A stretch of 64,000 nt of DNA from Cenococcum geophilum (Eukaryota): contig CP158635.1 in the NCBI GenBank assembly GCA_050273025.1, positions 10,788,001 through 10,852,000 on the forward strand, written 5' to 3'. The position numbers and the translations under genes were made by a program. Numbering within the stretch: the stretch's first letter is position 1; each line of letters opens with the position of its first letter. Under the pieces are notes generated by a model, which worked only from the letters and a program-made list of their open reading frames with translations, searched no databases and had not been told where the DNA came from. Positions 5,227-64,000 of the stretch are shown piece after piece.

Positions 5227-5364
5227 CCATCTCCCTCCTCTTTATCTTTATCCTTAAAGATTCAAAACATCTCTAAGTCGTTTACTAGAGGTGTAATATC
5301 TATTTAATTAATTTGGTTAATATCATTGCTTATTATACCTAAAGTAATTTCTTCTTTACACGCC

Positions 5365-12752: not shown

Positions 12753-12792
12753 ATTCTTAGGTACTAAGCCTTATTATATAACGTTATTGCAA

Positions 12793-18700: not shown

Positions 18701-19321
18701 ATATCCTAAAAGGCTATTTTAAATCCTTCTCTAAAGTAATAGGGGGGGAGGACGAAGATAGTAGATGCTTTAGGGAATGTAGAGCACTACAAACCCCTAG
18801 GCACCTACTACTAGACTACAACCTATATAGAGAAGAAAGAAGAGAAATGTAAAAGAAACTAGGCTCTTCTCTCTCTCTAAAAAAGCTATTTTGTATATAA
18901 AAAGGAAGAGAGGCGCTTTTTCTATTCCTAAGTAGGACAGGGATAGCCACTAGAAAGTGGCTAATAACAGCAGGATCTATAGAAGGAGATAACTCCTACT
19001 AGGCTCTTAGTAAAGAGATATTAGTAAGTAAAAGGACAGAAATAAATTACAAAAGGACAGGGGTAGGCGTTAGGACTTCTTATTTCTTATAGTTTTCTAT
19101 CGCTTTCTTATTCCCTAGTAGTTGCTTATAACTTAGTATTTTACTAAGGAATTATAAACTCCTAGTTTAGGGGCTTATAAACTACTAGGACATAGTTACT
19201 AGTACATGTTAAGCTGCCCTAAGGGATTTATATATATAGGACTATAGCGTCATAGCCTAGAGGCTGCATGCGCAGTATTGTACGTAGTATAATACAACGG
19301 ATATAAAAAAATATAAAAAAA
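12793..19321 (+). mobile_element. Full-length RIP-inactivated LINE (Tad1-like): ORF1 with CCHC knuckles, ORF2 endonuclease-RT-RNase H
   Basis: 13-bp TSD AACGTTATTGCAA (12780-12792, 19322-19334); A-rich 3' tail. ORF1 C..CQKFGH.GDRC (~14720); endonuclease DIILVQEP (~15095) and GDYNLHH (~15455); RT G.PQGSPISP (~17095) and SYIDDF (~17190); RNase H YTDGS (~18135). Confidence 0.93.
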
Positions 19322-19443
19322 AACGTTATTGCAAGCCCTTAGTAATATTCCCTTTTTTTTTCTTTATACCTTAAGTATCCTTTTTATATATATATAGTAA
19401 CCATAGCGTCGCTAGAGCTCCGCCTTTATAGGAGGGGGGATAA

Positions 19444-19636
19444 TATTATAGAACCCTACCGTAGGGGCCTCTATAGGAGAGTCCCGTGCCCTTATATACA
19501 CCTCGCGTATAGCTTATATTAGCTACGCGTAGGTATATTACCTCCTTACGCCCTTAACCCTTATAATTAATCGCGTAATGTCTTATAGACTCCTTAAATA
19601 TATACATTCTATAGCCACTACTTCTAACCTATAATA
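19444..19636 (+). repeat. Probable 3' LTR of the family C element
   Basis: Preceded by purine tract AGGAGGGGGGA; RIP-altered TG..CA ends (TATTA...TAATA); family A sequence resumes immediately after it. Confidence 0.6.
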
Positions 19637-20339
19637 TAGCAGGACTATATAGGGTTCTTAAAAAAATAGGTAACTTATATAAAGTAAAGCTCCCAGATTT
19701 AATTAAGGTTTACCCTTTTTTTGCTAGATAAGCTATAGAAAGCTATAAATAACCTATTACCTAGATAAAAAACGAACCTCTCCTACCAATTTAAGTTAAT
19801 AGCGACGATAAATAGGAAATTAAAGAAATACTAGTCTGTAAACTAGTAAGAAAAACGCTAAAATACTATATTAGTTGGAAAGGCTATAACCCAAATTCTA
19901 CCTAATACCCTATATAAAACTTTATTAGTAGTCCCTATAAGCTTTAAAAACTCTATAGCTATTACCCTAATAAACTAGAACCCCTAAAGTACCTAAATAA
20001 GTAGATAAAGTGCTAGTATAGCGAAGACAGAAGAATATAAGGATAATAACGCCCTATAGGTGTAATATAAATATATAAAGTCTAAGGGCAGGCTTTACTA
20101 AAGGGGGGGTAATATTATGGCACTAGCAGAAAACGGTCAAACTTAGGTAGCAGAACTTAGTAAAACTTTATGGTTATATAACCTAAGGGACCGTATAAAA
20201 GAATCCTACTTTAACTCGCGCTGCTTTTTTTCTCCTTTCCTCTCTCTAGCTTTAGATCCTTGTTTATAGACAATCTAATTATATGGGCTTGCGCGTTCCT
20301 CTTACCGTACTTATACCTCGATTAACTAAGTCGCTAATA
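19637..20339 (+). mobile_element. Family A 3' remnant (integrase end, chromodomain, PPT, LTR 20113-20339)
   Basis: Reverse-complement similarity to 1856-2550; PPT AAGGGGGGGT at 20101. Confidence 0.85.
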
Positions 20340-21309
20340 GAACTATACCTTTTTATAACCCTTTATAAGACGGTTTAGCCAAGTATAAGTAGTTAGTTGC
20401 GCTTATAGGGCTTAAGACGCCTTATTAGAGCGACGCTAAACCTTAGTAAGAGCTAGGGATAGTTTACTCTTTAGTTTTTTAGCTGCTATTAATATATAAG
20501 ACCCTAAGATAAATTAAATAAGGTACTAAATAATTATAAAGAATAGTAAGACGTATATACTTAGCCTTAAAAATGGATTAAATATTATAGGACGATTGTA
20601 TATTTACTCGCGTATACTTAGTATATAAAAAAGGTTAGTAACTAAATAGAGCTATAATTATAATATATACTAGCTTTTTTTTATATAATAAGAATAGGAT
20701 GGTATAACTTTACTAAATAAAAAAATAATAGTTACTAGCTAGTTATAATAGTTAAATATAAAGGATTTAATGAAAGGTATTAGGAATAATAAAGGTTATT
20801 AAATTAAAGATACGAATACTATACCTCTAATAGATAACTTAAAAATAGGAAATATCTTTAAGGATAAAGATAGAAAGGAGGGGGATAGTATTATAGACCT
20901 TATATTAGTAGTAGTACAACTACTAAGAAGAGATATAAATAGGTTAGTTAAGATAGTATAGGAGGCGCTAAAACTAATTAAGCTATAGAATAAGGAGTAG
21001 CTAAGTTATATAGCTAGTTACGTTATAGGGTTAGAATATAAAAATATAGGAATATAGAAATGTAACGTGCCGATATACTAATATACTAACATACTTAGTA
21101 TATTTCTTAGGCATAGTATTAAATACTTAAAGGACTATAATCCCTACCTTAGATAGTCCTCTTCTTTATAGTAAATCTTAGAATATAATTAAAGTTAATC
21201 TATTAGGTAACCTACTCTACTAGTTATATTTACGTTATTAACTATTTTATATTTATATACCTAGCCTATTAATAAGTCCACCGTGGTATTTCCTATAAGG
21301 CTTTATTAT
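20340..21309 (+). mobile_element. Family B-related 3' remnant with LTR (~20889-21309)
   Basis: Diverged reverse-complement match to 4802-5650; PPT GAAAGGAGGGGGA at ~20873. Confidence 0.7.
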
Positions 21310-21598
21310 CCCTTAACTCGCCAAAATTCGTCCACACGTTATCGATAAGAATTTACCAATCAAATCAATGCATTAAAATCGCTGTGCTCAGGAATATACA
21401 GCTGATGTGGAGAGTTTCGAAATCGGGAGAGGCCTTTTTTAAAGCATAATTTAATTAAACATTATATTGAGTCGGCTGAACAAGGCCTATGTCATTGGAA
21501 GTACGATTAGAAGGCATAGTTGATGGTTTATATTGATTAAATCTATTAAGCCTGTTCCGCACGGACTACTTACTTTGTGGACGTTGGCGGGTTAAGGG
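21310..21598. mobile_element. 289-bp MITE with CCC...GGG ends and 2-bp TSD (AT), CMC/EnSpm-like architecture
   Basis: TIRs CCCTTAACTCGCCAA..CGTCCAC / GTGGACG.TTGGCGGGTTAAGGG; AT on both flanks; removing it restores the host LTR end. Confidence 0.8.
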
Positions 21599-40831: not shown

Positions 40832-40986
40832 CATCCGGTTGAAAGCGCGTGTTGATCTTGGTCAAACGGCAGAGTTTATACCTTTTAAAGTAATACGCAC
40901 AGCCATTTCAATGTATTTTTACCTTTTTTTAGGTGTAAATCTACGCGTTTTGATTAGCGTGATCAACATGCGCTTTCAACCGGATG
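40832..40986. mobile_element. 155-bp Tc1/mariner-type MITE
   Basis: ~26-bp TIR CATCCGGTTGAAAGCGCGTGTTGATC / GATCAACATGCGCTTTCAACCGGATG, extending imperfectly inward; flanked by TG and TA (one TA copy altered). Confidence 0.75.
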
Positions 40987-43524: not shown

Positions 43525-44127
43525 ATCTATCCGGTTGGGCGGATAATAATCCTATCCGAGGATAACCCGGATATCGGATAATATCCGGATAATATCTAGA
43601 TATCCGCAAAAATTTAACAACAGGGTTCTGTAGTGGGTGCTATAGAAATTATAAGTAGCGGGATTATAGGGCTTAATATTTGGCGTATAATAAAAATTCT
43701 TAGCCTATAGCGGCGGCAGTAGGAGCACTAGAGGGTGGGAATTAGATTGTGGAACTAGAGGATAAGGAATAGATAAAAGTTACTAAATTTAGACTGCTGG
43801 GTCTCCTCTCCTTTCTACTATTTTTATTTTATTTTATAGTATTTTATATAAAGAAAATCATAAATAAAGAGGTAGAAAGGAGATATCTAATTAGTAGGAA
43901 AGCTAAAGATATTTACTAAGGCTCTGCACCAAGCTCTATACGAGGCTTTCCCTAGGCCTTATTCTGCAGAGCTCTTATAAGTTTTATATCTATATAATAT
44001 CACTTATCCTTAGGATATTTAGATAAAAGTGGTACTATTTTAAAGCGCTTTACAAGCTCTATAAATCTATACTAATAGAAAATTTATTTATTTAATATTA
44101 GGGGGTGTATTATAAGTATAAGTATAT
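43525..44127. repeat. Repeat-like sequence with clustered ATCCG/GGATA motifs, possible DNA-transposon end; marks the onset of RIP
   Basis: Dense ATCC(G)/GGAT motifs at 43525-43607; the sequence is interrupted by the 44128 element and resumes at 50128. Confidence 0.35.
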
Positions 44128-47100
44128 TGTTAGCGGCTTAGTCAATCGAGGCATAGGCACGGCAAAAGGGACGCGCAAGCCTGTACGATTGGATTGTCTA
44201 TAAACGAGAATCTAAAGCTAAAGAAAGGAAAGGAGAAGAAGGGGAGCGCCGCTCGAAGCTATATACGATCCTCTAGTTACGTAACTACAACTATATAAAA
44301 CTATCTAAAATTGTCCGCTACAATCCACCGTTTTCCATCAGTGCTATAATATTACCCCACCCTCTAAAAAAGCCTGCCCTTAGGCTTTGTCGTTAAAAGT
44401 CTTAGTAAGAGAATCTAACTAATTAGATAACTTTAACCGCTGGTTAAAGTTCCTAGATATTTTAAGACCTTATATAACTAAGAAATTTCTAGGGTATTCT
44501 TGTCCTTATATTTTTCTAGTAGCTTATTATCTTTGTTATACTAGCATTCTATCTACTTATTTAGGTACTTTAGCGGTCTGGGTTTATTAGGGTAATAGCT
44601 ATAAAACTCCTAAAGCTTATAGGGACTACCTATAAAGTTCTATATAGGGTACTAAGTAGGGTCTAGGTTATATCCTTTCCAACTAATATAATACTTTAAC
44701 GTTCCCTTTATAAGTTTATAAGCCAGTATTTCTTTAATTTCCTATTTATTATCGCTATTAACTTAAATTAGTAGGGGAGGTTTATTCTTTTATCTAGGTA
44801 GTAGGTTATTTATAGCTTTTTATAGCTTATCTAGTAAGAAAATAAGGTAAACTTTAATTAAGTTTAGGAGCTTAACTTTATATAAGTTGCCTACTTTATT
44901 AAGAATCTTATACGGTTCTTCTATTTTATAGTCTAGCTTATAGCTAGGCCGTTCTATCTTTTAGTTCTTTATTATAACCTAGACTATATTACCTATAGTA
45001 AAGTTAGGCTCGCGCCTATACTTATTTACCTACTATTTTATTAATTTTTAGGCCTTTTTTAGGTTTATATAGGCTACTTTCTAGGCTTCTTCTAAGCGCT
45101 TAGCGTACTGCTAGGCTTCCTTATAAGATAGTTTTTCGCGTACGGTCTAGGGCCCTTTTAGTCTTTCCTAGTTAAAGCTTATATAGGGTAAGTAACCTAT
45201 TTCTAGTTAAATAGGGGCAAATCCGGTAGAGTTATAGGGTAGGGTTGCTTAGGCGTAGTCTATTAAGGGTAATAGTTTAGCCTAGTTATTCTAGAAGTAG
45301 TTAATAAAAGGCTAAAGTCTCTAGTCTAAGTATTAATTTATAATCTTCGTTTAACTATCTATCTAGGGGTAATATACTATAGAAAGCTTTAGCTTAATGC
45401 CTAAGATCTAGGTAAACTTATTCTAAAAGGCTAATATAAACTATAGCCTATAGTTGGATATAATAGTATCTAGTAGTCCATAAATTCGGTAAATGTAGTA
45501 AATATATAATTAGGCCGCCTCTTTAGTATTAATATTCTTATAATAGGGAATTAAAAATAGGCGCTTGCTAAAGCGGTTAACTAGGATTATAACTATATTA
45601 TATCCGTTACGGTCTAGAGGTAGCTTATAAAAGTCTATAAAGATATATTATTAGGGGCGGTTGGGTATTAAGAGGGGTTTTAATAGTCCTAGGGTCTTAT
45701 TTCGTAGAATTATAAACCTATAGTAGTTATTATAGTTCTGTATATAGCAGTTAATATTTATAATTATTCCGGGCCAGTAGTAGCGGTCGCTAATAATCTT
45801 ATAGGTTTTATTTTTTTTAGGGTAGGCCGTAGAGACCTAGGTATATACTTTGGCAATAAGCCAAGTCTATAAGTTCTGTTCCTCTATTACCACTAGCCGT
45901 TTATAGTGCTTAAGTAGTCTACTTTTAAGGGACTATAGGCTAGAAACATTCTTTGCCTTTTTATGGTACTTCTATAGAGAAGGGGCTGTACGGTTTACCT
46001 ATAGTAGTTTATTAATAAGGTCTAGTTCTATAAAGTTAATAGGGCATATCTTAGTATTTAAAGAGTCTGTATTTAGTTCTACCTATATTTAAGAGTTAAG
46101 GTGCTCTAGTTATAGTAGCGCTTAGGTCTATAATAAGATCTTTATAGCTATCTAGTTATTTATATCCTATTTACGCCTTATAAGAGCATCCGTACGGTTA
46201 GTAGCGCCTAGCTTATATATAATTAGGAAGTTAAACTAAAATAGGGTATCCGCCTAGTGCGCCTATTAGGCTATAAGGGCCTTTATTATTATAAAATATT
46301 CTAAGGCCTTATAATTAGAAACTACCTAGATAGACTTAGGGGTGCCTTCTAGTTAGGCTCGCTAGTGCTAAAAGCTAGAGATAATAGCTAGCATTTCTTT
46401 ATTATAAATTGGGTAGTTTAGCTTAGCATCTACTATAGTCTTTAAATAGTAAGCAATAGGGTACTATTCTCTGTTTATCTACTTTTGGGAGTAAACGCTA
46501 GCTATAATACTATCTAAGGCATTAGTTTCTAGCATTAAGGGCCATTCTAGGTTAAAGTGGGCGAGTAAGGGAGTAGAGGCTAGTCGTTTCTTAAGCTTAT
46601 TAAAGGCCTACCTATATACGGTATTAAAGTAAAAAGGCCGGTCCTTATAGGTAGGTAGGCTTAGTAGCTAGGTAATTTTGCTATAGTTTTTAATAAAGCG
46701 TCGGTAGAAGTTATAGAACTCTAAAAATAACTATACCCCCTTTACGGTTTTTAGGGGTACCTATTAGTTAATTACAGCCGTCTTTTTTAGGTCTACCTTA
46801 ATCCCGTTTATACTAATAATAAACCCTAGGTATTTTATATGCTTAACACTAAATTCTAACTTCTTAATATTAGCTTAGAGGCTAGCTTCCTAAAGCTGTT
46901 ATAGGACTTTATAGATATATTCTTTATATTCCAGTTTATTTTTAGAGTAGATTATAATATTATCTAGGTATACTATATAGAAGTTATTAAGGTAGTTAAA
47001 TAGTATATTATTTATATATCGTTAGTATATAGCCAGTTCGTTAGTTAGTCTAAAAGGTAGTACTTTATATTTATATGTTCCGTAATAGGTTTAAAATATA

Positions 47101-50100
47101 ATAAGATTTTCTAATTTAGGGTTTATTTTAATTTAGTAAAAAGCCTAGCGGATATTAAGCTTCGTAAAGATTTTAGCTCTACTTATTTAGGCTAAAGTCT
47201 TATTAAGTAAAGGTAGTAGGTAGCGGTTTTTAAGGGTTAAGTTATTAAGCTTATAGTAGTTAATACAGAAACGAAGTCCTCTATTTAGCTTTTTGGTAAA
47301 AAAAATAGATAAATTAAAAGGGGCTTAACTAGGCTTAATAAAGCCCTTATCTAGGTTATTAATAAAATACTACTTTATAGCCTATAATTCGGCAGTAAAT
47401 TATTATTAGAGGGGGCTATAGCTAAGGGTAACTACCCTATCCGGCTTAATTTTAATCTTATAGTTATATAGTCGGTAAAGCGGAAGTATATTAGATACTG
47501 CTTTAGAGAAAGTATCTTTAAATTTCTAGTATTAATAGGGCAGTTTCTATTCTACTAACTCCTTATCTATAAGCTTGCCTTTTTCTTAGGCTAGGGCTTC
47601 TTTCTCTTTAATTATTTAATTAATTTCGTATAAGCTAGTTATAATGGTAATAGTATTGGGCTAAACTAGGTTCTAGTAGAATCCTATAGCGTTAATATAG
47701 TAGATATTAACTAGTAGGAGGTCTATAGGTTTCTTTATAGATATTTATTAGGCCGTATTTTGCGGTATAAGGTTTCTAGTCTTCCTTAGCTTACATTCTA
47801 TTTTCCATAAGTTGTCCTTTTAGTTTATTAGTTTAGTATATTATCTAATATCCCTAGCCTTCCTTTATGGCTGCGTAGGGCCTAAGTTCTCTATTAGGGA
47901 CTTAGCTAGGCTACTACCGACTTCCTAAGTCTTTAGTGCAGGTAGTGTAATATAGGCAGTCTAGGGGCGGCGTAGTATACGGATCTGTTGCGGATTAAGC
48001 TATATATCCTTCTTAAAAGCCTAGTCCTTACGCGTTATATTAGCCTAGTAAACGGTGTTTATCTACAGCCGTATAAGGTTTTCTATTATAATTCTAATCT
48101 CTTTTATAAAGGAAGGCGTTAGGGGTATAGTTTTAGGCTAGATAAGCTGCCTATTCTATACGTTAAGCTATAAGCCTAAATAGGCTAGCTATTTTCTCCC
48201 TAAGATTATATTATAGCTTCTAAGGTCTATAATAAGGAAGGGGATATTATACTACCTTCGTCTATTAACGCGGAGGTAGATCTATAAGATAGTTATAATA
48301 GGTAACCCTATCCGTCCATTATAACCGCAAATAGGGATTAGTTTAGGTAGTTCTTTAAAGAATAAATTTAAAAAGTTAGCTAGTTTTATAGCGCACTTTA
48401 TATTAATTAAGGTAAAGGTATTTACTCCTAAGTTAGCTAAAGCAGAGGTTAAAACTTAATATTTATTATGGAATAAAGTATAAGGGATAGTATAGCTTCT
48501 TCTACTAACTAGCTAACCTAGATTAATATATAATATATTAATCCCTTTTAACCCTAAAGAGGAGTCTTCCTCTAGGGTTTCTTTTTTTCTAGCTCTGTAT
48601 TATCCTCCTAAATTAATAAGACCTTATTTATTTTTGCCTTTATTAGGCAGTTTCTTATAGGGTAGCCTATTTAACCGTATAAGAAGTAAGCTCCTTAATT
48701 ACTAAGGGCCTATATATAGGGGTTACTATATATAGGCTAGGTGTATACTAGGCCCGTAGTAGGGGTAGCTATATAGCTAGCTACTAGGTTAACTATAGGA
48801 GTTGCCAATTATACCAGGGCACTATAGGCTGTACTTATAGTACTTATAGCCTAGTTTATAAGGGTTCTAGTTTTTAGCTAATTAGTGCGTGCCTTAATTT
48901 AACGGAGGCCTTAGTTAATAGCTAAGCAATAGTCTATAAGTTTCTTTAACGTCTATACTATAATATAAGCTAGTAATATAGCCAGCTATAGGTCTAGGGT
49001 AAGCTTATTAAAGAGGTCTAGTAATAGGTCTTCTTAGGGGATCTAGGCCTATCTGGCTAGGTATAAAAAGCGGGTTTAAAAGGCTAAAAAGGTCTCCGTT
49101 GTTTTTATGTTTAGGCTTTTATAGCTAAGGTAGGCGTTTTATACTTTAAAATGGTCTTTATAAATAAAAGATAAATATTTAAATATTTCTTTTTTAGAAA
49201 TAAAGGGGTCTATTAAGTCTTTAGTATATCGCGGACGTAAATACGTCTAAGCGTCTCCGCTAGTACGGCCGAAGACATAGGCCATTTTGGCTTAGGCGTT
49301 AGGGAAGTAGTCTATATTAACTTTAAGTTTATCCTATAATTAAAGCTTCTAATTATTAAATATAGGGTTAGTTCCGTTTATAAGTAGCGAGGGATCTATA
49401 ACCTTTATTAACCGCTTTAGTACTATATAGGCCTTAGTAGATCTATAAAGGCGCTAAAATAGGGCCTAAAGGACTATAGTAAGTCTTTAGTTATCTAATA
49501 ATGACTTATTATTAGATATAGGGGTATCTCTAGCTTTAAGTAGTTCTTATAGTTGTTTAATTTTAGTATTAGTAGCCGTAAGCTCCGCCTAGGGGGTTAA
49601 AATATTAATTATTTCTTCGTCTAAAGTATTTAAGGGTCCTATAGCTGCTTTACCTACTGCTATATTTTGTAATATAGTAGTAGGGGTATTAGGTAATTCT
49701 AGGTAATTTCTTTAGGGGTTCTAGTCTATATATATCTTATAGGTCCTTTCCTTAGGATTCTATTCTTTTCTTTTAGGTTCTATCCTTATGGTCCTAGTAA
49801 TGTCCTTAGGGTCCTATTGTATTCTTGTCCTATTTATAGTCTTATAGATATATTTAAGTTCCTTTTTAGGAAGAAAGAGTAAAGTAAGCTTTAGATAATG
49901 TTAGCGACTTAATTAATTAAGGTATAGATACGGCAAAAGGGACGCGCAAGCCTATATAATTGGATTGTCTATAAACAAGAATCTAAAGCTAAAGAAAAGA
50001 AAGAAGAAGAAGGGGAGCGCCGCTTAAAGCTATATATAATCCTTTAGTTACATAACTATAACTATATAAAACTGTCTAAAATTGTCTACTATAATCTACC

Positions 50101-50122
50101 GTTTTCTATTAGTGCTGTAATA
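44128..50122 (-). mobile_element. Full-length RIP-inactivated Ty3/Gypsy chromovirus, family A
   Basis: 224-bp LTRs at 44128-44351 and 49899-50122; TSD TATAT (44123-44127, 50123-50127); PPT complement at 44352; de-RIP RT YLDD (~46960), RNase H ETDASD (~46520), integrase and chromodomain. Confidence 0.93.
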
Positions 50123-50882
50123 TATATTAGGGGATTTTGCTAAGACTATCTAAAGACCATTAGCTAATAGGTCTATTATCTAAGAGGGCTATTTAGCCTA
50201 TTCTCCGCAGGTCTAATAATATATGGATTGTTAATGCCTCCTAACGAAAATTTTAACCTAAGTTTATAAGTAATAAGCTGATAAATTAATCCAAAGCTTT
50301 AATTTAGAGCTTTATTATATAGACTTTATTTAAATATATATAGAGATAAGGTTTTCTAGGGGGAGACCCCCTAAGACCCCCCTATATAGAGCTTTTACTT
50401 AATTTAAAAGTAGTAATAAGATTAAGGCACCTTAGTTACCACTAGGTAAGGATCTACTATAGTAACTAAGGCGCCCTACTTAAGCTAGGCTTAAAAATTA
50501 TATTAGTTATAGATCTAGTATATATTTAGACTATAGAGCTTTAATATAGAGCCCTCTACGTATAATCTAATATAGTAGATTATAATTATAATTTAAAGCT
50601 TTATATACTAAATATTTTTAACGCCTAATAACTAAATCGCTATATAGTTAGAATTAAAGTCTACTGCCCTAACTTGATTAAATATACGTATAAGAAGAGA
50701 TATAACTATATACTAAGACCCCTCCCCTAATAGGCGAAGGCGGTGCGACTATAATAGTATAAGAGGCTAATTTAACTACGTCAGGAAAAATTTTACCAGC
50801 ATTTTCGCAGCATTTGGCGGCATTTGGCGGCCAAATGCGCAATCCGCGCACTATAACGTGTAGCGTATGGTATCAACTTAGG

Positions 50883-51215
50883 TGCGGCATACTGCCGCAT
50901 CTAACAACGCGATGTAGCATACTGCCGTATCCAATAACGCAGTGTAGCATACTGCCGCATCTAGCAACGCGGTGCAAGTATACTGCCGCATCTAATAACG
51001 CGGTGTAGCATTCTGCCGTATCTAATAACGTAGTGTAGTATTCTGCCGCATCTAACAACGTAGTGTAGCATTCTGCCATATCTAATAACGTGGTGTAGTA
51101 TTCTGCCGTATCTAATAACGTGGTATAGCATTCTGCCGCATCTAATAACGTGGTATAGTATACTGCCGCATCTAATAACGCGGTATAAGTATACTGCCGT
51201 ATCTAATAACGCGGT
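50883..51215. repeat. Tandem array, ~11 copies of a 30-31 bp unit (TGTAGCATWCTGCCGCATCTAAYAACGYGG)
   Basis: Directly visible periodic repeat without spacers. Confidence 0.95.
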
Positions 51216-51370
51216 ACAGCTAATTGCGTATTTATAGCTACCTAGGTAAATAGTGCCTTTATTCTATTAAGCTCTCTCTATACTTAATATATAATTAATA
51301 TATAATACCCCCTTTATATATTTTATATATCTTACTTACTTTAAGTAATAAATAAGTATTACTCTTTCCA

Positions 51371-51537
51371 TGTACTTAATAGTATTTACTTAGTTTATAT
51401 AGTTAGTAGTATTTACCTATTCCGCGTAATTAGTATACTTTACTTAGTCTGCGTAGTTAGTACCCTTTACTTATTCTATATAATTAGTACCCTTTACTTA
51501 TTCTACGTAGTTAGTATTTTTTACTTATTTTATGCGC
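51371..51537. repeat. Tandem array, ~6 copies of a ~27-bp unit (TAGTTAGTACCCTTTACTTATTCTACG-like)
   Basis: Directly visible degenerate periodic repeat. Confidence 0.8.
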
Positions 51538-51599
51538 CTAGCATATATTATATAAAGAACATATTTTAATCTAATAGTAGTATAGTATAACACCCTTTA

Positions 51600-53760
51600 A
51601 TTAACCTACTATTTTAAGTTTAATATTTATATAAGTCCCGCCGCGATAGTAGTACCGTACTATTAAACCCCTAATTATCTTTATTCTCGCTATTATTTTC
51701 CCTATCTATTTTACTACCTTCTTTACTCTTATCCTCTTTATCGCCGTTATTTTCCCTATCTATTCTACTACCTTCTTTACTCTTATCCTCTTTATTAGTA
51801 AATTCTAGTATTACTAGTTTATCTTTACTCTATAGGCGGGCCTTTATATCCTTTAGTATAGCACTATTTATAATATCTATAACCTTAGACTTACCGGTAA
51901 AAGTATACTGCAAGATATAGTAATTAATTCCTATTTTCTGTTTATTATTACCTTAAATTTATTTAAGGCGCGCTTAGATAATATTAATGTTATAGTTATA
52001 ACGTGGTTTATAAGCGAGCGGCGAATACAAGCGAGCAGCGCACCTTGAAACTCACCAAAAATTGGAAAAATCGCACTTTAATATCTCGATAACCACTTAA
52101 TAATAAATTCTAATAATTTAGATTTAGGCTTTTATATATACTCTATAGCTTCTATTAAGATTATAGAGTAAATAGTTTAATAGTTTTTAAAATATTAAAA
52201 TTTGGGGGCTAAAATAAGGCTAAATTACTATATCCTACTATATCTTAAAAACTATAAAGCTCTTTACTATATAATTTTAATAGAAGCTATAAAGTATATA
52301 TAAAAGCCCAAATCTAAATTATTAAAATTTATTATTTAGTAGTTATCGAGATATTAAAGTGCGATTTTTCCAATTTTTGGTGAGTTTTAAGGTGCGCCGC
52401 TTACTTATATTCGCCGCTCGCTTATAAACCACGTTATAGCATTAAAATTATTTTATTAGTATACTATAAAAAGGAGACCTTATATATAGTTTTAGGGTTT
52501 ATTCTTTATAACGAATATACTAGGCTACCGTTATCCTATTATATTATCTTTATTAGCCTATATATAATAATTAAAATAGTATAATATTATAATATAGGAA
52601 ACGGTAGTAAAGTACTATAGTATATAGTAAGTATCGCGATATAACGTTGCGATATAATTAATATAATATTATATATTTACACTTATAGTATACGGTTATT
52701 AAGTAAACCTATTATTATACTTAGGATTTAATTCCTTTAAATCTTTTATAGTATCCTTAAACGGATTACTAATTACCTATTAAATCTATAGTATCTTATC
52801 TCTAGTTACGTTTTATATCTTATTAACTTATTATAGAAGTAGCTTACATAGCCTTTTATTACGCTTAGGTTAGTAGCTCTTCTAGGTATTTTATAGTTGC
52901 TCCTAACTATTTATAATACGCTTTAGTAAGTATAGTAAGAGGCTTTCTATAGATTTACCTATAATTATAGCGTTAGCTTTAAACTTATAAATAACTTATA
53001 TTCTGCTTTTATAGTCCTTAAGAGTATATTAAATTGCTATATATATAAGCTATATTATATTAGCTATAATAGGCAAGAAGAGGTTAGTATTATTCTTATT
53101 AAGGGTAAGTAACCTTAGCCCAGAATTAAAGAACACGCGCTTAATATAATGTATAATAATTAGTGCCTTAAATCTTGTCTCTCTATCCTAGCCTTAGTTA
53201 GTTAGGTATAATAAAAGGTAGAGTACTAACTAGGCCACTAAGCGTAAAGCGGTTATCCTTAAGTAGTTCTACTACTTTCTTTACTATAGCCTTAGTATCT
53301 AGTTTAAGGCAGTAATAGCTCCTGGTAATAATATCGCGTACTATATTTATTATATAATACTAAAATACGCTAAGCTAGTTATATAGCTAGAAAATTAGTT
53401 AGTATAGTACTACTAAATTTAAGGACCGTAAACCTTATATGCCGCTAGCCCTAGTGGCATACTTAATACTCTATTTATTAGGTTTCCGTAACAGTCTATA
53501 ATAGTAATTACCTCTTTCTATATCTACTTTATTAGTATATTTAAACCACTTATATTTATTTCCGGCTAGGGAGAGAAATAGAGCTCTTTAGGCATAGAGC
53601 CTATTATTACTTATATAATAAGACGTGTCTAAGTAATACCGTATATCTTTGTATTAACTAGGCTAAGTAGCTGCTTTATATATTGTCTAAAGTTATTCTA
53701 TAGCGGTTATTTATTTAAGTAATATATGCGTTTCTTTTAGGTATGGGTTTTAGATATTTT
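51600..53760 (-). pseudogene. RIP-inactivated DUF6532-like gene with acidic C-terminal repeats, interrupted by a MITE
   Basis: De-RIP ~52970-53270: LLEDDRFT...RFEAPIIIHCIKRVFFDSG...LF.PI.ADNIAY...AIQHTLKDYESG....EF; D/E-rich duplicated segment at 51680-51800. Boundaries are approximate and the domain call is from remembered motif pattern. Confidence 0.5.
52001..52434. mobile_element. 434-bp Fot1/pogo-type MITE with ~175-bp TIRs
   Basis: Starts ACGTGGTTTATAAGCGAGCGG, ends CCGCTCGCTTATAAACCACGT; TA TSD on both sides. Confidence 0.9.
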
Positions 53761-54329
53761 AGGGTTGCTTAAGGTTTATAGGCTTTTATCTAATAAGAAC
53801 GGAACTATCCGTTAGGATAACGTTATTAAAATTAATAATAATAGGTTATACTATAGCATATTAATAATAGTCTTGCCTTTTAATAGAGACAGTTACGGTA
53901 TAGAGCCTAATATTATCCCCTTTAAAATCCGGATTATCTTAAAAGCTACTACTTAACTTATAGCATCTTTATTTACTTTTCTACGGGATAGGTAGAGGAT
54001 AAGTATATTAGTTTAGTAAAACTATTTAACTTTTATACGCACCTTACTTCCCTAAAAGACGCTAGATAGTCTGGAGTCTTATACTTAATATACTTTAAAC
54101 AATAACCTAGTTAACTTTTATAATATAAATTAGGTATTTCTTACTAAGTATATAGAAAGGAGCTTTAATAAACTTATAATAATAAGTTAGAAGGGCGGCC
54201 TAACTATCTATTAGGCTTTATAATAGGGTAATTAGATTGCCTTACTATAGCGTAGGGTCCTACTTTATATAATATTTTTTCTATACCGCATAGAAGCCTA
54301 GTTCTTTGCGATATTTACCTACTCTTAAG

Positions 54330-57300
54330 GTAAATAGTATGGTGTATAGGATATAAAGGGTAGCTAGCGCATAGAGGGTAATGTGTAGTGGTGTTATGTT
54401 CTAGTTTATTATAGTCGCGGCAATTTACCCCTTTATTATAATCCGGCGCCGCTAGTTATAACTTACCGCTATTTTAGTTAAGTTATATTTATTTACCGCC
54501 TAGTATAAGCCTATTTTCTTACATATATATTAACCTGTGCCCTATTTATTTGCTTAAAGTCTTTATTATATATAGTATTATATATATCCCAATTACTATA
54601 GTTATTTATAAAGAAACAGTCTATAATATTAATATTCGTCGGTATAAGTAAGATAGGCCTTATAATATAGTTAATATTATATATCTAGAGGGCATCTAGC
54701 GTGCGTTTTATCCTACTATTAGATAGCTTTATACTCTATACTCTAAGTATTCTAGTTCTTATATTAATTTTACTACCGTTATAAACTTAAAGGGTCTCTA
54801 CTAATGCACTAGCGTATTTTAGGTATTTACCCTTACTATCTAATTACCTAGTATCATGGATTATAAATAGCAGATAAAGCCTCCCCACTTTATTGCTATA
54901 GAGGCTGTCGTTTGCCTACTTATATTCTTATACTATTATAGCATTATAGTAGGGGGCTTTAGTATTAGCCTATAACGGGGTATATTAAGCAAATACCTTA
55001 TTAAGCTTATTAGTGTTAGTGGCATTCTTCCTAAAGTAAATATAGTATATAACGCTGTAATGGATACTTAAGGGTATCTTTAATACCCAATTATTATCGG
55101 CCTCTAGTTAGTTAACGTCCTAGTTTATTTACTAGATTCCGTTAATCTACTTACGGTATTCCCTTATAAAGGGGGCTAGTTTAGATATAAGGTCGGTAAT
55201 CTTTATCTAGCGCTATACCTCCTTAACTATACGCCAGATAGATATATTAATTCTTTAGTCTTAAAGTATCTAAGTTATATAGTCGTTAAAGTTCCATATA
55301 TATAAGCGATATACGTATATAATAACTATAGGACCTAGTTATATTATCTATATTGCGCTTATTAGGTCTACTATATTAATTATATTAGTTAATGTCTATA
55401 GCTTAAGTTCGTTTTAAAGTATAGTGTTAAGATATATAGTGTTATATTATAGCATCTGCTCTTTATAGTTGTTCTATTTATTAGTCCTACGGTAGAATAC
55501 CTTCTATAGCTTATATACTTACTCCAAATACTTTATATCTATACCTTTAATTACTCCTAGTTGCTAAATACTCTCTAGATAGTAGGTAATAGCATATAGC
55601 TTAGAAATATTAAAGTGTAGTAGTTTTACCTTACTTAGTTAAAACAGAAGGAATATATCCTTTATCTTATCCATTCTATAAATAGCTACTACTAGGTACT
55701 GGATGGTTAATTCATTGTGTAATATATATTAAAATAGTATAGTAAAGTCCACAAACGCCCGGATAAATAGCATAGCGCCTTTATTTTATTTTAGTAAGGG
55801 TACTATAATGGGGACCAATTATTGTAACAGAGATTTATATATCTTTTCTATTTATTAGCCGATATTTACCTAGCTATCCCATACTATTATATTAGTAAAT
55901 CGTTTCACCTATATAAAGCGAGTGGTAATAAGTGTATTAATATTTAATATCTCCTAGCCGCAACTATCTATACGCGGGATATTAAGGCCCTAATATTTTC
56001 TAGCCTATATTTCGCTTTATATAAGCCCCTTAATCTAGTGCATAAGATATTTACTAGTAAGGCCTTTAAGCACCTAGTGTAGGAAATTAGGCGCCATTAT
56101 CTTATAGATATTAGATAGATTATAGCCCTATATAAAGTTATAGAACGGCTAAATATAATCTAAGTTATTCTTTTTATTAGTATCGCAACCTTCCTACTAT
56201 ATTTATATTTGGTTTTTTGTTAATTAGTATATACGGAATAGCTACGGTTACTAGATAGCAGTTATTAAATTATACCGTTTATTTGTATATATATAATAAG
56301 TTAAATATTTATAGCTACTTTTAATACCTATAAGCGTGACCTGTTCTTTATAATTAGCTATAAATATAGCTAGAAGTAAAAAGTAGTGTTAATTCTAGCC
56401 ATCTGTGTATAGGAGATATACTCCTTCTTTACTAGCTTTTTCTAACGCTATAGGCATTATTAGCATAACTATACTAGCAGTAGAGTTATCGCTAAAGTAT
56501 ACGTTTAAGGATAGCTATAAGGGTCTTATATTATACCGCTAGTTATATTATTTAGTTACTAGGTATATAGACCAGGAGGTATATAAGTAGTAATAGGGCT
56601 AGTTAATTTACGGATTGTTAAATATATAGTTTAATATTTCCAATTAAAATATAGAGCGACTATACTTTCTTACCGCCGGCGTATTATATTAGTTAGGTCT
56701 TATTACTAGCTAATATAATTAGCACTACGGTTACGCTAAGCGGTAGCTACTTTTACATCTCCTACTACCAGTCTACCGTGTTAAGCTTATTATATATTCT
56801 TATTTCTACTAATAAGTACTACCTTATTAGTGAGAAAGTTATATCTCTTTAGAAGGGCTATAACTAATAAGAAAGGATATAATCTTTAGAGCATTTTAGT
56901 AACGTACTAGCAGCTACTAGTCCCCTACGGTTATAATTATTTTAATTTACTATGGTTAATTACTCTTAGATTATATCTATTTTAAAAGTAGTTTTACTTT
57001 AATATTATTAGCACTCTAGTAAGAAAAATGGTTGGTAAATACTCCCTAAAGCCTAATATTATTAAACTATTTATTAATAGCGCGGTTAGAAGTCCCGTAG
57101 CTTACCTACTATAAACCCTATATATATTCTGCCTTACTGCTAAATAAATAAAATAGGGGAGGTATCTTATTTAGTGTACTGCTAGTACGCTTAATACGCG
57201 GCATAATATTGTATACTGCCGTAGTATTGTCCATAGTTTATGGATTTCCTTAGTTCCGTCTTAGAGGCTTTCCTATAGCGCGGCTAGTAGCCTCTTTAAA

Positions 57301-57800
57301 TATTTTAGTCTAAAAGACGTCTATAAATATTCTAGTTAAAGTTTACTAATTAGTCTTAACTATCGCTAGGTTATATACCCTATTAAATGTTACGGAATTA
57401 TTATTATAGTGTATATCTATAGCCCCGTTATTCGGCTTATTAATAATATTATTACCTAGAGCTTATATAGGTGGCCACTTATTACCTTGCTCTAATTTAG
57501 CCTTATAATTAGTTATATAATGCCCTTTTAAGGTTTAATAGTATAATAGTGCATTATCGTCTATATATTATATAAGTGGCCACTTATTATATTACTTTAG
57601 CTTAGCCCTATAATAGGCTGTCTAATACTTCTCTAAGCTTTAATAGCGTAAGGGTATATTATTATTTATTTCTTTAATATTAACGCCCTTATATCTACCC
57701 TTCTTTTATTTCTATTATTTTAGATAATATTATTTATAATAGGTTAGACCGCCCATGCTTTTTACTTTAGTCCTATACTTTCTCTATTACCGCTAAATAG
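54330..57800 (-). pseudogene. RIP-inactivated Plavaka-family transposase
   Basis: De-RIP motifs in the expected order: T.DWWWEMQKQLP.GATVVPIILASDKTQLT..AGGK.AW.LYI.IGNI (~56630-56780), MAPDFLHQVLKG (~56060-56098), QWTGK (~55850), RAFVDF...QY..H (~55715-55762), HFNIPKLHAI.HYPESI (~55565-55617). Ends are approximate. Confidence 0.8.
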
Positions 57801-58389
57801 AGCTTATTTATAAATTGCCGCATTAAGCTATAATTTGCTATAGTTTAGTTAGAAAGAAGCTGAAAATAATATCTATATAGAACCGTATATTTAAAGTAGT
57901 ATTTATAGCTTATACTATGTTATAAGCTAGTTAAGATAGGAGGAGTATAATAAGAGTACGGCAATATCCGTGGATACTAACGCGCTAGATAGTGTAACCC
58001 GTTACGTTTTACGCTAATTTACGCTAGATCGCGTTACGTTAGGCTAGGAGACTCTACTTATTACTAATGTCGCGGTGCCTTTTTATTATACTAAGCATAG
58101 GATTTTAAATACCACTATTTCCTACTTAGGATACTAGACTGTTTTTTATAATAGGACGCGATATATAATAGCGGTATACTGTAAATACGGCGTAGTATAA
58201 CTCTATAAGCGCTATAGACCCGTAAAAAGATATACAGCTTATTACTGGCTTAGGCATTACTGTAGAGAGACTTAATACTATTAAGCGGACTTTTAAGTAG
58301 GTTATTATTAAGGACGGCATCTTATATGTTTTATTTCGCGGATAACTAAATAATTTACTACGTAAGTAGGCGATTTAAAAAGTTATCTA

Positions 58390-59445
58390 TTAGGTAATAG
58401 AATGTGAGAAGGTACTAGCGCTATAAGTATATAAGGCTATATAGAACATACTAGCCCGCGTATAGTTAAATATATATAAGAAGATAAAGGTGCTAAAACG
58501 GCCTGGCATTAACTATATAATAGATGCGGAAAGGGGGTATACGGCTACTATAAACTTATAGAGTTTATTTTAGCTTAACTATATATAGAACTACAGCTAT
58601 AATCTTAAACGACTTGTTATACTACTTTATAGGCGGAAACTAGATAGTATAAACTTAGTCCTAAGTATAGACGTGGCCTTAAGTCTAGTGTTGCTGTTTA
58701 ATGCGCCTTAAGACCTACGCATAGTTAAATATTAGCTACTAGTTAAGATGTTTTTAGAGGCCGGGGTAGATTATAATAAGGAGTGGATATAGGCCGCCTA
58801 TATAGAGATTATGCCTATCCGAAATAATGGGGCCTTAAGGGCTGCTCTATTAAGGGCAGTTTATTATAGGGTAGACTAGGTTATATTTACGACTATCTAT
58901 AAAGATAGTATATAGATATCCGTTATAATTATAATATATTACTAATATTTATCTAGCCCTATTTTTAGCGCGATACGTTTTACTAGGCGGGCTAGAAGGT
59001 ATTAATTAATTATAGTTAATCTAATCTACGTAAAGATAGTGACTTTAGTTAAGTTTGCCTTATAGCGAGACCTCCTATTACACTAGGAAGCCCTAAGATT
59101 ATTACCTATATATATAATCTTAGGTTATCTAGATATAGTACGGCGAATTGCCTTTACTATAGGCTCTTTTATTAGGGACAACTATATAGACATTATATTT
59201 ATCCTATGTTTTACTAGCTAGTAGCTAGTATAATAGGATAGGTATTATTTTAAGGGCCTATGGTATTAGCGACAAGTTTCTTAAAATATAGTAACGGCGT
59301 ACTAATACTAGGAATAGTATACCTAATATAAGCAGGAGAGGGTATTAGGTCACGTTGCCTTAGCGGCAGCTATAGTAAGAAAAGGATTAGATCCTATTTA
59401 AGGTTATTATAGTTTAGCGAAAATAGAGGCGGCCTATACTATATG
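58390..59445 (-). pseudogene. RIP-degenerate ORF-like region of unknown function (Pro/Gln/Ser-rich after reversion)
   Basis: Codon-like structure with mostly TAA/TAG stops on the minus strand; no recognisable domain. Confidence 0.25.
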
Positions 59446-60124
59446 GAGAGTAATTAATAATAGTTGCGATTGCTAGTAAGATATCTAGACTATAATCTAA
59501 CTAATTAAGTACTTAGGGAATGTTTAGTTATAAGTTTAGATTAGAATAAGGGCTTTAAAATAGAGTTAATTTAAAGCTCTAATCTAATTCTAAGGCGACC
59601 GTTCGGTTAAATTCTAGTTTAACTTAACTTTAGCCATAAATTTTTAATGTTTTAAAAAACACGCTAAAAGTTACTAAAAAGTTGGTAACTTTACTATATA
59701 TAGAATCTAAACTAAGGTCTTAGTATTAATTTAAATTAGGAGCTTAAAGCTCCTTATTTAAACTCTAAATTAAATCTAAAGGCTTTAGATTATATACGTC
59801 TATATAACCTATAGATCTATAAACGCGTATTAAATTAGGAAGGAACGCGTTCTTTCTACTAGACTTTTAGTTTAGATTTAAAAGCGATAGATTATAACTA
59901 AATAACCCCTTAAAATCTGGATTATGGATTAGTATTAATTAACCGCTAGCCTATAAGGGATAGAAACTAGGATTACTAAGCTTTATAAATTAGGCTATCT
60001 TTACCGTAATATACTTATCTATTTTAGAGATTATAATTATTAAAAGTTTATCTTATTTAGCTGTAATATATAATATTATAATATACCGTATTTTACCTAG
60101 TACTATAGTAAAATTATAAATGCT

Positions 60125-63100
60125 AAAGGCCTATAGCTACCGCCGCTCTTAACTTCTATCTAGTGTCCCTATTTAAGGGTCTCGCTACTAATAAAGTCTA
60201 TAATATCCGTTTTTACTACCCTTCTTATATTCCGACGCCACTAATATCCTCTCTATTATTATTATTCTTGCTATTATTACTAGCACTATCCTAGCCGTTA
60301 TTATTAGCGCCCTTTCTATCGGCCTTATTTTACGCTTTAGTATAATTACTAGTACTACTAATATTTACTTTACCCGCGAAGTTAGGGATAGTAATATTAA
60401 AGTTAACGTCTATACTATATAAAATGGGCGTATAATCGGCTGTATATTGGCGGTAGATACGCTATATAGTTTTATTAACGTTAAATAGGGTAATAAGTTG
60501 CTAGAAGTACTCTTTTTACTTAGGATTCTTAAGGTTAATAAATACCTTATTATTCTTATACTACTTCTTAATTTTATAGTACGCGGTATTTATAAAGGTT
60601 TTGTTGCTAGTATAATAATTATAGACTACCTAAGGACTACCGATAATAATAAGGCCTGCTTATAGTCTAGTAATTATAAAAAGGTTCCTCGCTATATCCT
60701 AGATAAATTTTAGTAGACTAGCAACTATTATATTATATACTAATAACTCTACCTAGCCGCCTTGGATGCTATTAACGGTAAAGACCTTAATCTCGCTAAC
60801 TACTAACGCAAATTTTTGCCACTTACTGCTATCTTGCTGGGCGTAGCACTATTCTTTAAGCGTATGCAGTGCTGCGGAGTAGATGGTAAGTTAGGCTGTA
60901 TATAGAACGGTAAGGCTAACCTTTAATGGCTTAAATTTAAAGTTTATTAGCGCTATGGCCACCTAGAATACGCGTTAAGTGTAGACTAGGTTATACGTTA
61001 ATTAGCTAAGCTTATTTACCTATATAGTACTATTAACGGCAAGGAAGGTAATAGGGTAGTCACAGCGCAACATATCCTTAAAAAAGCTCGCCGCTAGCTT
61101 TAACTGCTCTTGGTCCTTAACTATTAGGCTTATCTAAAGCTAGCCGTGTAGTAGGACGGCATTTATGAGATATATAATGTCTTTAATAAATTAATATTAT
61201 AGTAAGAACTATACTATATCTATACTAGCCGTAAGGAGATGCGTATAGAGGGAGATGGATTTTTAATAGTGGAACGGATTATCGAAATTAGGACTAAGGA
61301 TTAGTTTTAGTTAGTATATATTATTAAGGAGAACCTAAGGTATAGGGTCGCTAGCCTAGATTTATAAACCTCCTTAGATTAAATATAGTCTACTTTAGGT
61401 AAACCTAGTAAGACTGCCCAGCTTAGATACCTTCTTGGCCTTATTATAGAAAACTACGCGTATAGCGCTAATAGAATATATATAAGTCTATAAGACTATA
61501 TTAGGTGTTATAAGAATAATATTAGCCTTCTTAGCTAGGTCTATAATAACTACGTTAGCCGCGAGTATTAATCCTATCTTATTATTTTGCGTTATATTGT
61601 CACTAAGCGTAAATTAGTATAAGTATTAGCGGAATTTAGCGTATTTAGTTGTATTAGGGTCTGTAATAGGATATAGGTTTCTATTACTATTTAGGATACC
61701 TATAAGGCGTAATAATTACTAACCTTTAGATAAATCTATAACCTATAACCGCTTATTAAAGCTAATAGCATTACTAGCCTTAAACGTACGGTAGAGTAAG
61801 AATGCTATATTTAGCATAGACGCGTCCTTGTTAATTATAGTATAGTTATTCTATTCCTTAAAATACTTAGGATAAGTATTAATACCTACCGCTGTTTGCT
61901 GTATAACGGCATCCTACTTATAGACCTTAGTTTCCGTTAAGCGTATATAGTGGCGAAGGATAATAGGAAATTTAGCGGGACGGCCTTACGTAATTAGTAC
62001 CTTATAGTCCTCTATAAGCGTATTATTAATTATCTTAGCTAGCATATTTAGTTAGTAATTAAGCGGCAATAGGACCTAGATTCTAGTAGGATCCTACTAA
62101 GGCGACCTAAGTTAATACTAGTATCGTACTAAGATAGTTAGGAAGGTTAATTTCCTAACACTACTAGGGCCTTATATTAGCAAAATACCGCCTATTATAT
62201 ATTTAAGCGTAGTACAGGCATCTATTTGCTCTTTATTAAGTAGCAGTAAAACGGCCTTAAGGGCATTATTAACTAAGTTCTTCCTATACTTAGCGATATT
62301 ATAGTTAAAGTAATTAATATACGGGAGATCTATAAAGTTATTAGATAGCGTAATTTAGCGCTTAATATAGAAACTGTCGCCTCCTTACTATAGGTGGTAT
62401 AGAGTATTAATCTTTTAGGAGATTCTAACCTTAGGGACACGCTTAGTTACGAGATATTTAATACCCTATACTATAATTAGGGCCTTACTTAGGTTACCAA
62501 CTATTATAAAGTTGTTACTGCTTAGGATATACTCTAGAGCAAATATAGGGTTTAGTATAAACTTATAACCCACCTATAGTTAAAAAATAAAAGTATAGTA
62601 GTTATAGCCGGAGCTAAAGGGAGTAGTATTAATAATAACTTCTTCCTAGCTGGCCTAGCTATCTGCGTCTTTACCTAGGAATAAGATATTAATAATAGAG
62701 TTAGTATAAAGGGCAAGACTATTAACTATTTAGATAGTAGCGTAGTAGACTTAGTTTGCGCTACCTAAGAAGGTAATAAGATAAATAATAGTAGGTACCT
62801 AGGGGTTCTGATTAACGGCTTTAAGGCTCGCGACTATGGTATAGAACTGGACTATAAAATACTTAAGAACGCTATTGAACTAATACCTTACGGGGATTTT
62901 ATATAATGGTCGGTCCTCCACTAAGAGCTATATACTAAGTTGGATATTTATATTATAGTTCTTCTACTAGCGACCTAAAGGATTATTAACGCTCTGCTGT
63001 TATAGGCTCGCGTTTAGGCTCGCGATATAACTATTAAGCTATTTAGTGCCTAGTGTAAAGAAGTAGACAACGACTATAGGATTATTTAACAGCATATTTT

Positions 63101-64000
63101 AAGCTTTATAGATTTGTGGTATAAACGGGCCGAAGTCCCTGTTAATAAAGAAGTACTTACTAAGTAACGTGCGCGTACCTAGTGTAAGTTTATTAGAGGC
63201 GATAATGAACCTAATATAGTAAAGTTATAGGGTTATAGTATCTTGTGGGAGAATATAAGTAAGATACTTAAGCGTAGTTAGACGTAATAGTTGTTAAGTA
63301 ACTAGAGAAGCAGTATTAGTAGTATTAACCTTAATATTACCGGCGATATTGGTATTTGTAAATCGGATAGACGCCGTCTTATATAAATAATAAGTAGGTA
63401 TTCTACCGGTCTTGTAAGACGCCTAGAATATAATACTATATGCTATAATATACTCTTTAATAATTTGCATAACAAACTAAACTATAAAGTAGTTATTATT
63501 TAGAAGCTAAAGTATATTTAAAGGTTCGGCTATTACGGAATTGCTGTCCTTTATATAGGTGTCTAGATTATCTACTAGGCTATCTACTACTAGATAGAAG
63601 CTGGCTGTATTAAGAGGTTTAGGTAATAGAGAGGTAGTAGTACCTAGTGCATCTACCTTACCTAAAGCGGTTACGGCGTCTATTACCTAAATTAAAGTAG
63701 GTCTACTTATGCAATTATTAATATTATACCCTATAACTCCGTAGTTCTTATATACCTAACTATAAAAGATAGTTTAATGGTCTAGGGAGCTATAGTTTAG
63801 GCAAGTTTACTTTTTCTTACCTAATAGCTAGGGACAGTCTCACTTTCTATAGCCTATAGCACTATATTAGTTACACGTTATACTAGGATAATTACTCTTA
63901 AGATAACTAGCTTCCCTATAATTATTATATATAGGGTTAAGGCAGTTAGCTTTAAAATAACTAGCCTTACTATAGCCGCGATAAAGTTAAAAAGCTTTCT
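60125..64000 (-). pseudogene. RIP-inactivated Upf1/Sen1-like (DNA2/NAM7, AAA_11+AAA_12) SF1 helicase with at least 4 N-terminal CCHC zinc knuckles; 5' end beyond the window
   Basis: Single minus frame of ~1290 codons. De-RIP: four CX2CX4HX4C (~63765-63985); L..EQ.DA then LLIQGP.GVGKST (~62145-62235); VVF.DEA (~61436-61458); VLLGD.HQLKP and NPF..Q.SISLY (~61250-61335); QYR (~61195); TVDSIQGG (~60757-60780); D.ARN....TR...GLIIIG (~60640-60700); acidic tail. Confidence 0.8.

Follow-up and report, generated by a model that had tools for sequence, protein, structure and literature searches.

Does a DNA transposon of the Plavaka lineage bring a helicase of its own, or do a transposase and a helicase lie side by side by accident? 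The question is raised by the right-hand end of a 64,000-nucleotide stretch of Cenococcum geophilum DNA (contig CP158635.1 of assembly GCA_050273025.1, positions 10,788,001 to 10,852,000). This whole stretch is called the window here, and coordinates are those of the window unless another contig is named. A preliminary description, made from the letters alone, had read the block from 50719 to 64000 as one multi-gene transposon of more than 13 kb. In this study, the block was found to be, quite probably, one copy of a large, autonomous cut-and-paste DNA transposon of the Plavaka lineage, which repeat-induced point mutation (RIP) has inactivated and which carried a CCHC/Upf1-like helicase gene and a DUF6532-like gene. 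The Plavaka lineage is related to CACTA/EnSpm.

Gene relics in the right-hand block

The following features were recognized in the block; MITE denotes a miniature inverted-repeat transposable element, TIR a terminal inverted repeat, and TRF the program Tandem Repeats Finder.

50719..50886, minus strand: putative 3' terminal region (depth fall; motif scan)
50887..51215, unstranded: subterminal tandem array, 30 bp x 10.9 (TRF score 402, 86% matches)
51359..51529, unstranded: second subterminal array, 27 bp x 5.9, with periods 54 and 81 too (TRF)
51693..51795, unstranded: third short array, 54 bp x 1.9, 97% matches (TRF)
51999..52434, unstranded: palindromic MITE-like insertion, nested and foreign to the element itself (arms 211 nt, 91% complementary)
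52969..53196, minus strand: DUF6532-like domain relic (Pfam, profile 106-179 of 194)
54496..57807, minus strand: Plavaka transposase gene relic (tblastn of P0028; Pfam PF18759)
57808..60218, minus strand: spacer of 2.4 kb between helicase and transposase, with a MITE-like insert (protein search)
59515-59910, strand not stated: MITE-like segment, ~396 bp, with 19-nt TIRs
60219..64000, minus strand, cut by the window end: zinc-knuckle Upf1-like superfamily 1 (SF1) helicase gene relic (tblastn, stop counts)

The genes in this block are relics. Over 50719-64000, the TpA/ApT index is 1.66, the (CpA+TpG)/(ApC+GpT) index is 0.34 and the GC content is 0.31; the values for the gene island at 23-44 kb of the same window are 0.80, 1.20 and 0.47. 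When the window was compared with an intact-looking locus, L004 (GC 0.49), 65 of 68 differences were C>T or G>A in the window, 43 of the 65 being at CpA/TpG and 15 at CpG. These figures bear out the RIP mutation proposed in the preliminary description, and its view that the coding regions are missing as open reading frames (ORFs) because of RIP stops agrees with the longest stop-to-stop ORF in 48-64 kb, which is at most 109 amino acids (aa). RIP is reported, in the portion of the source available, as documented solely in Pezizomycotina (PMC5751038).

The helicase relic was recognized through its intact relatives. In a tblastn search, aa 90-1355 of P0002 (intact, 1356 aa) were placed on 63998-60219 with 62% identity, and the first ~90 codons fall past 64000. 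A word-based protein search with the minus frame from 63998 returned P0001 (1355 aa; 59% identity, query coverage 100%, 1473 bits); it was the 1 protein at E<=0.01 among 8000 candidates scored, where no other relative of near length was found. All 77 in-frame stops of the relic stand at Q (44), R (19) or W (14) codons of the intact protein, which is the pattern left by RIP. Searches with the window's own frames, stops being read as X, found no helicase by Pfam (six frames) or PDB (three frames), because RIP hides the helicase from them; the helicase motifs are mutated in the window copy, with RIP-altered knuckle relics from about aa 96 onward.

The intact helicase ORF is 1355-1377 aa long, and in L004 it begins at a start of its own that is preceded by 1.5 kb of sequence. 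P0001, the 90% cluster of which has 13 members, matched zf-CCHC at 75.3 bits and AAA_12 at 71.6 bits, with AAA_11 at 22.1, under the cut-off of 27. The four full-length variants (P0001, P0002, P0006 and P0012) are 93-97% identical, and each of them holds six CX2CX4HX4C knuckles, a Walker A motif (GPGGVGKS) and DEAG. The closest solved structure is that of UPF1, where aa 1008-1223 of P0001 were placed on the RecA2 domain only (E 6.7e-13); for the 490-aa middle region of P0001, Atlas gave weak leads of at most 0.86 (ZNFX1, DUF6469, and the 1B domains of UPF1/SMUBP-2). Like UPF1/NAM7 (PDB 2xzo, 2gjk, 2xzl), the best solved relatives, the helicase has Walker A and DEAG; unlike them, it aligns only through RecA2, its AAA_11 match is below threshold, and six N-terminal CCHC knuckles take the place of UPF1's CH domain.

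The Plavaka transposase relic was detected in the window itself. Against a cut-off of 26.3 bits, PF18759 (Plavaka) scored 30.0 and 27.7 bits in two minus-strand frames of the window; in L003, a 24-kb locus within a 57.7-kb contig that came from a scan of metagenome contigs with P0001 (four loci), it scored 52.8 and 36.7 bits. For P0028, an intact relative of 1085 aa, the score was 253.7 bits, with profile positions 9-325 of 325 matched. By tblastn, aa 1-317, 317-434 and 410-1085 of P0028 were mapped to 57807-56854, 56857-56504 and 56508-54496 with 53-61% identity. A protein search with the frame 56556-54400 returned P0014 (657 aa, 63% identity, PF18759) plus three more distant proteins; the 1085-aa forms in the transposase cluster are P0028 and P0029. 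In-frame stops number ~99 in the relic, which also has a frameshift of 1 nt near 56852-56855, where other copies have an extra A after 56852, and a ~50-nt intron near 56503 (about 56455-56503). P0019 and P0018, which are JGI genomic ORFs, read into or out of this intron, and P0028 joins AAILK straight to PLEKAGKEG. P0028 and P0029, Logan forms in which the exons are joined exactly, look like spliced products; such joins hint that transcription and splicing of intact copies take place somewhere. By eye, P0028 shows CSIC and then H-x4-H after an ADG stretch. The N-terminal coding part also contains a 105-bp x 1.9 tandem repeat (57463-57662), and a matching repeated acidic segment, AELEQ..DEW, is found in the intact protein.

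The third gene is less well preserved. DUF6532 (PF20149) has a gathering score of 24 bits; the match in the window is below it, at 15.8-18.9 bits, and the match at the corresponding place in L003 is above it, at 26.4-29.7 bits, covering the C-terminal part of the profile only (106-179 of 194). From these scores, 52969-53196 is accepted with moderate certainty as the relic of a DUF6532-like gene, which, read in this frame, probably runs from about 52700 to 53900. For two Ganoderma species, the accessible part of one source (PMC8955403) names Plavaka, KDZ and DUF6532 side by side among the enriched domains. An exhaustive HMMER search for a fourth gene, made only with the strongest candidate frame between helicase and transposase (f1 of 59256-57811), matched three short ORFs of RIP-like composition (P0032-P0034), and 59256-57811 was rejected as a gene.

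Most of the gene content given in the preliminary description therefore stands. Its Plavaka assignment is secured by the two above-cut-off PF18759 matches and the mapping of P0028, and its zinc-knuckle helicase by P0001 and P0002 with zf-CCHC and AAA_12. "Upf1/Sen1-like" can be kept as Upf1-like, the best solved relative being UPF1 through the RecA2 domain only. The DUF6532-like gene passes the threshold in L003 but not in the window, and three of the four co-oriented coding regions (helicase, transposase and DUF6532) were recovered, whereas the fourth was absent from the frame tested.

Copies and extent of the repeat unit

The L003 locus showed that the block is not a single occurrence. The stretch 10266-22315 of L003 runs collinearly with window 64000-52435, their identity being 85.5-87.6%; in the 11,191 positions that align, the two sequences are 87.3% identical and differ by 1357 transitions and 61 transversions. 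L003 is a second RIP-mutated copy whose nested inserts are unlike those of the window. Its flanks are also unlike the window's, with another repeat family (window 4785-12539) upstream and a LINE-type (long interspersed nuclear element) reverse-transcriptase insertion downstream. As both flanks and nested inserts differ, L003 is not the same locus as the window. Within the 64-kb window, no second copy of the element was found. A merge of the window and L003, in which C was taken over T and G over A and stops were counted, did not open the frames enough for gene mapping.

Logan contigs from four runs (X1, X5, X6 and X7; two species labels and a root metagenome) were placed on the window at 80% likeness. 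In X1, 48,443 short contigs were placed, with differences that are nearly all transitions. Summed depth was flat over the 21 bins of 50808-64000 without the MITE bin, ranging over 10,971-19,789 in X1, 882-1,263 in X5, 2,226-5,181 in X6 and 999-1,585 in X7, and the helicase bins averaged ~0.88 of the transposase bins in X1. The second copy and the tens of thousands of diverged contigs confirm that the helicase-bearing region is multi-copy, which the preliminary description had deduced from RIP.

Intact helicase and transposase sequences were also met on contigs of the same size in two sources. The helicase P0002 and the transposase pieces P0018 and P0019 are each recorded at JGI as "3 contigs, longest 20005", and the helicase pieces P0008 and P0010 and the transposase P0014 each lie on an ENA contig of 19,995. 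The second copy, the flat depth in four runs and the intact partners on equal-sized contigs together indicate one repeat unit. In the direction of transcription, its order is 5' arrays, helicase, 2.4-kb spacer, Plavaka transposase, DUF6532, three arrays and 3' end. The unit is longer than the part in the window, since the beginning of the helicase gene and 1.5 kb or more of 5' sequence fall past 64000; with 13,282 and 1,756 bp added, it measures at least ~15.0 kb, two nested MITEs being counted.

Some segments inside the block are insertions. Contigs in X1 and X5 lack 51999-52434 and join 51998 to 52435, and this palindromic segment is also absent from L003; its local depth is ~3x that of the host element, which marks it as a separate, more abundant small element. 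In the spacer, 59516-59887 is missing in L003 and present in the fragment L002, so that 59515-59910 is either a nested insertion specific to a subfamily or a deletion in L003. Relative to the window, L003 has extra pieces at 15976-16131 and 17800-18445. The LINE-type reverse-transcriptase sequence at L003 22335-24065 lies ~20 bp beyond the site of the window copy's palindrome.

Ends of the element and competing explanations

Multi-copy status and collinearity over 11.2 kb in two copies were observed directly; the ends were only bracketed. At the 3' side, depth in X1 falls from ~34,500 at 50622 to 1,702 at 50666, and the first element motif stands at ~50790, which places the end within 50623-50790. 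Three copies of the motif GCATTTGGC are found at 50810-50838, and GCATTTGG is named as an element motif alongside the 30-bp and 27-bp repeats. One X1 contig leaves out 56 bp at the third array (joint 51687->51744). At the 5' side, L003 and L004 have in common 1.5 kb or more of sequence ahead of the helicase start, and this region, seen in these two loci only, contains a 163-bp x 2 array and an array of GGCATTTTGG x 5-6.5. The 5' end of the L003 copy is bracketed at 8343-8510, between the last base of the other repeat (8342) and the point where L004 begins (8510). Near both ends, in opposite orientations, there is an array of the motif GCATTT(T)GG, as GCATTTGGC at the window 3' end and as an inverted 10-bp array in L003/L004. 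The two subterminal tandem arrays of the preliminary description (30 bp x 10.9 and 27 bp x 5.9) were reproduced, and the third array comes in addition. CCCC at 50719 is a possible terminus, not confirmed as such by the bracketing; a matching GGGG end and a target-site duplication (TSD), looked for using the L003 5' region, were not found.

Several points weigh against reading the block as one transposon. A RIP-tolerant local alignment of the window's left end with L003 8130-8700 gave no TIR, its score being within the shuffled range (19% and 8% of shuffles reach it); the terminus word scan found nothing; and neither a TSD nor an empty site was found. The termini published for Plavaka, TGT..ACA or CATCA..TGATG in the part of PMC12730594 available, were not seen here. 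A start at CAAATGCGG (L003 8343 against window 50634) had been considered as a TIR candidate and was dropped, nothing rising above the shuffles. The single-contig depth of ~90-110 in X1 suggests a family on the order of a hundred copies, but contig depth is not the same as copy number. The co-location of intact genes is read from equal contig sizes, and contigs may commonly be cut at ~20,000. The long copies compared number two (the window and L003), and the roles given below to the helicase and the DUF6532 protein are guesses. Of the claim of one >13-kb multi-gene transposon, a collinear three-gene repeat unit of at least 15 kb is supported, but its termini and TSD were not found.

These gaps leave room for an accidental composite, in which a helicase element or gene and a Plavaka element were adjoined once, for example by nested insertion, and were then copied together, the helicase not being a working part. 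Termini without a TIR or TSD match would suit such an origin, and so would the gene-less 2.4-kb spacer that divides helicase from transposase and the frequent nested insertions in the block. However, depth is flat over all parts in four runs, collinearity is kept in a copy with other flanks (L003), and intact helicase and transposase occur on equal-sized contigs in two sources. Moreover, every motif is retained in the four intact helicase variants, and the sequence ahead of the helicase has one motif array in common with the 3' end. A composite of this kind is therefore considered unlikely.

Alternatively, the helicase might be a fragment of a host gene that is carried passively, as in Pack-type transduplication, and has no function for the element. 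Host gene capture is common among DNA transposons, and the source names the protein only "cellular nucleic acid-binding protein". A captured fragment is hard to reconcile, however, with a complete ORF of 1355-1377 aa that has its own start and, in L004, 1.5 kb upstream, or with four open variants (93-97%) that have kept Walker A, DEAG and six knuckles; nor did a second relative of near length appear among the scored candidates. Passive capture is thus very improbable. That the block is cargo of a larger element (Starship) or a one-off segmental duplication is scarcely credible: although the window ends within the block, no match to DUF3435 or another recombinase was found when 50719-64000 was read in six frames and L003 8300-22400 in three (nor was a Starship captain, a DUF3435 tyrosine recombinase, matched in 44100-50718), tens of thousands of diverged short contigs speak against a single duplication, and the flanks of L003 are unlike those of the window.

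Genomic setting, mechanism and known systems

The element lies in the right-hand one of the AT-rich blocks (GC ~0.30-0.34) that flank the gene island on both sides. The island at 23-44 kb has normal GC (~0.47), and its ordinary genes include those for DUF4246, NUDIX and RAI16-like proteins. Two further repeats adjoin the block on its left:

44124-50123, minus strand: Ty3/Gypsy-type long terminal repeat (LTR) retrotransposon, RIP-mutated (RVT_1, RT_RNaseH_2, Integrase_H2C2; 229-bp direct repeats)
50124 to ~50640, strand not stated: another abundant repeat (contig depth)

The summed contig depth of the LTR element is ~15x that of the Plavaka element (209,000-292,000 in X1), and the joints 50122 to 55115 and 61487 to 49878 are from LTR element copies inserted within other Plavaka copies. 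A repeat family with strong negative GC skew occupies window 4785-12539 and 20347-21318, in the left AT-rich block, and also L003 547-8342. The gene island contains a ~155-bp MITE at 40832-40986 with TIRs of 26 nt (96% complementary), a 77%-identical copy of which is inserted into the L003 Plavaka copy (15976-16131).

For the Plavaka-lineage transposon favored here, the following mechanism is proposed. The DDE transposase would recognize the subterminal repeats and would cut and paste the entire unit. The helicase and the DUF6532 protein would serve the element as retained accessory proteins and would not be neighbors by accident. As a preferred guess, the knuckles of the helicase may bind nucleic acid, and its ATP-driven unwinding may either aid the processing of DNA ends in transposition or shield transcripts of the element against RNA-based silencing. 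Binding of the subterminal repeats, the part of TnpA in En/Spm, may fall to the DUF6532 protein. After amplification to about a hundred copies, RIP would have killed most of them, the window copy included.

Most descriptions of Plavaka elements concern mushrooms and rusts, where TET/JBP is the sole accessory gene, and others concern red algae, where the cargo is different. The name Plavaka was reportedly first given by Iyer et al. in 2014. In the portions of the Plavaka literature searched, no description of Plavaka with an SF1 helicase was found. Hence, the earlier statement that no Plavaka plus SF1B helicase architecture is known holds for the literature searched, but absence from print is not established by it. 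Nor was the set of helicase and DUF6532 beside a Plavaka transposase found described for the group in this literature.

The available part of PMC12730594 reconstructs Plavaka families from Agaricomycotina with TET/JBP as an accessory gene. The element of this study resembles its PlavakaA and PlavakaB (CMCT clade) in the PF18759 transposase, multi-copy state, DDE cut-and-paste mode and possible accessory gene. By contrast, a CCHC/Upf1-like helicase and DUF6532 are found here and TET/JBP there, the host genome here bears RIP, which is documented in Pezizomycotina, and the families described there are from Agaricomycotina, the element here is at least 15 kb long, and the termini and 2-3-bp TSDs of PlavakaA and PlavakaB were not found here. 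The giant red-algal elements PAG1-3 are 17-19 kb long and have three accessory genes, with no mention of a helicase in the accessible text (bioRxiv 10.1101/2025.02.11.637652). They share with the present element their large size, several co-transmitted accessory genes and tandem arrays beside an accessory gene. Unlike it, as far as the accessible text goes, they carry methylase/SET, ParB-like/2OG-oxygenase and one protein of unknown function, in a host of a different kingdom.

In maize, En/Spm (CACTA) encodes the TnpA protein besides the transposase TnpD; it is not known to carry a helicase. The present element resembles En/Spm in its subterminal repeat arrays near the ends and in having a second element-encoded protein besides the transposase, but no CACTA termini were seen here, and the parallel between DUF6532 and TnpA is an analogy only. 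AcademH is a DNA transposon that encodes a helicase. As in AcademH and Helitron, a helicase is encoded here inside a DNA transposon; unlike in them, it is a separate Upf1-like zinc-knuckle gene, accompanied by a DDE transposase. No Helitron Rep/HUH or Pif1 match was found in six frames of the block and three of L003, where RIP could hide weak matches. Helitrons have Rep plus a Pif1-like helicase, and it is for Helitron only that a helicase is mentioned in the available text of PMC12730594, the word being absent from its supplement as available. Helicases are among the accessory domains used to filter DNA transposons in the accessible part of PMC5751038.

A wider proposal can be made only tentatively, and is doubtful as it stands: RIP-competent ascomycetes might harbor a distinct Plavaka lineage in which the helicase and DUF6532 are obligatory partners and the helicase acts in transposition or silencing evasion. 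This would be the first group of cut-and-paste DDE transposons with a dedicated SF1 helicase, and root- and soil-associated fungi would still contain copies that are intact, spliced and probably active.

In sum, for annotation, 50.7-64 kb is dead transposon DNA and not a set of host genes. If the reading of the block as a Plavaka-lineage transposon with its own helicase is true, it widens the host range and gene content of Plavaka, and gives the orphan family DUF6532 a genomic home. It would also make a DDE transposon equipped with a helicase of its own accessible to tests, as intact variants of the protein are public.

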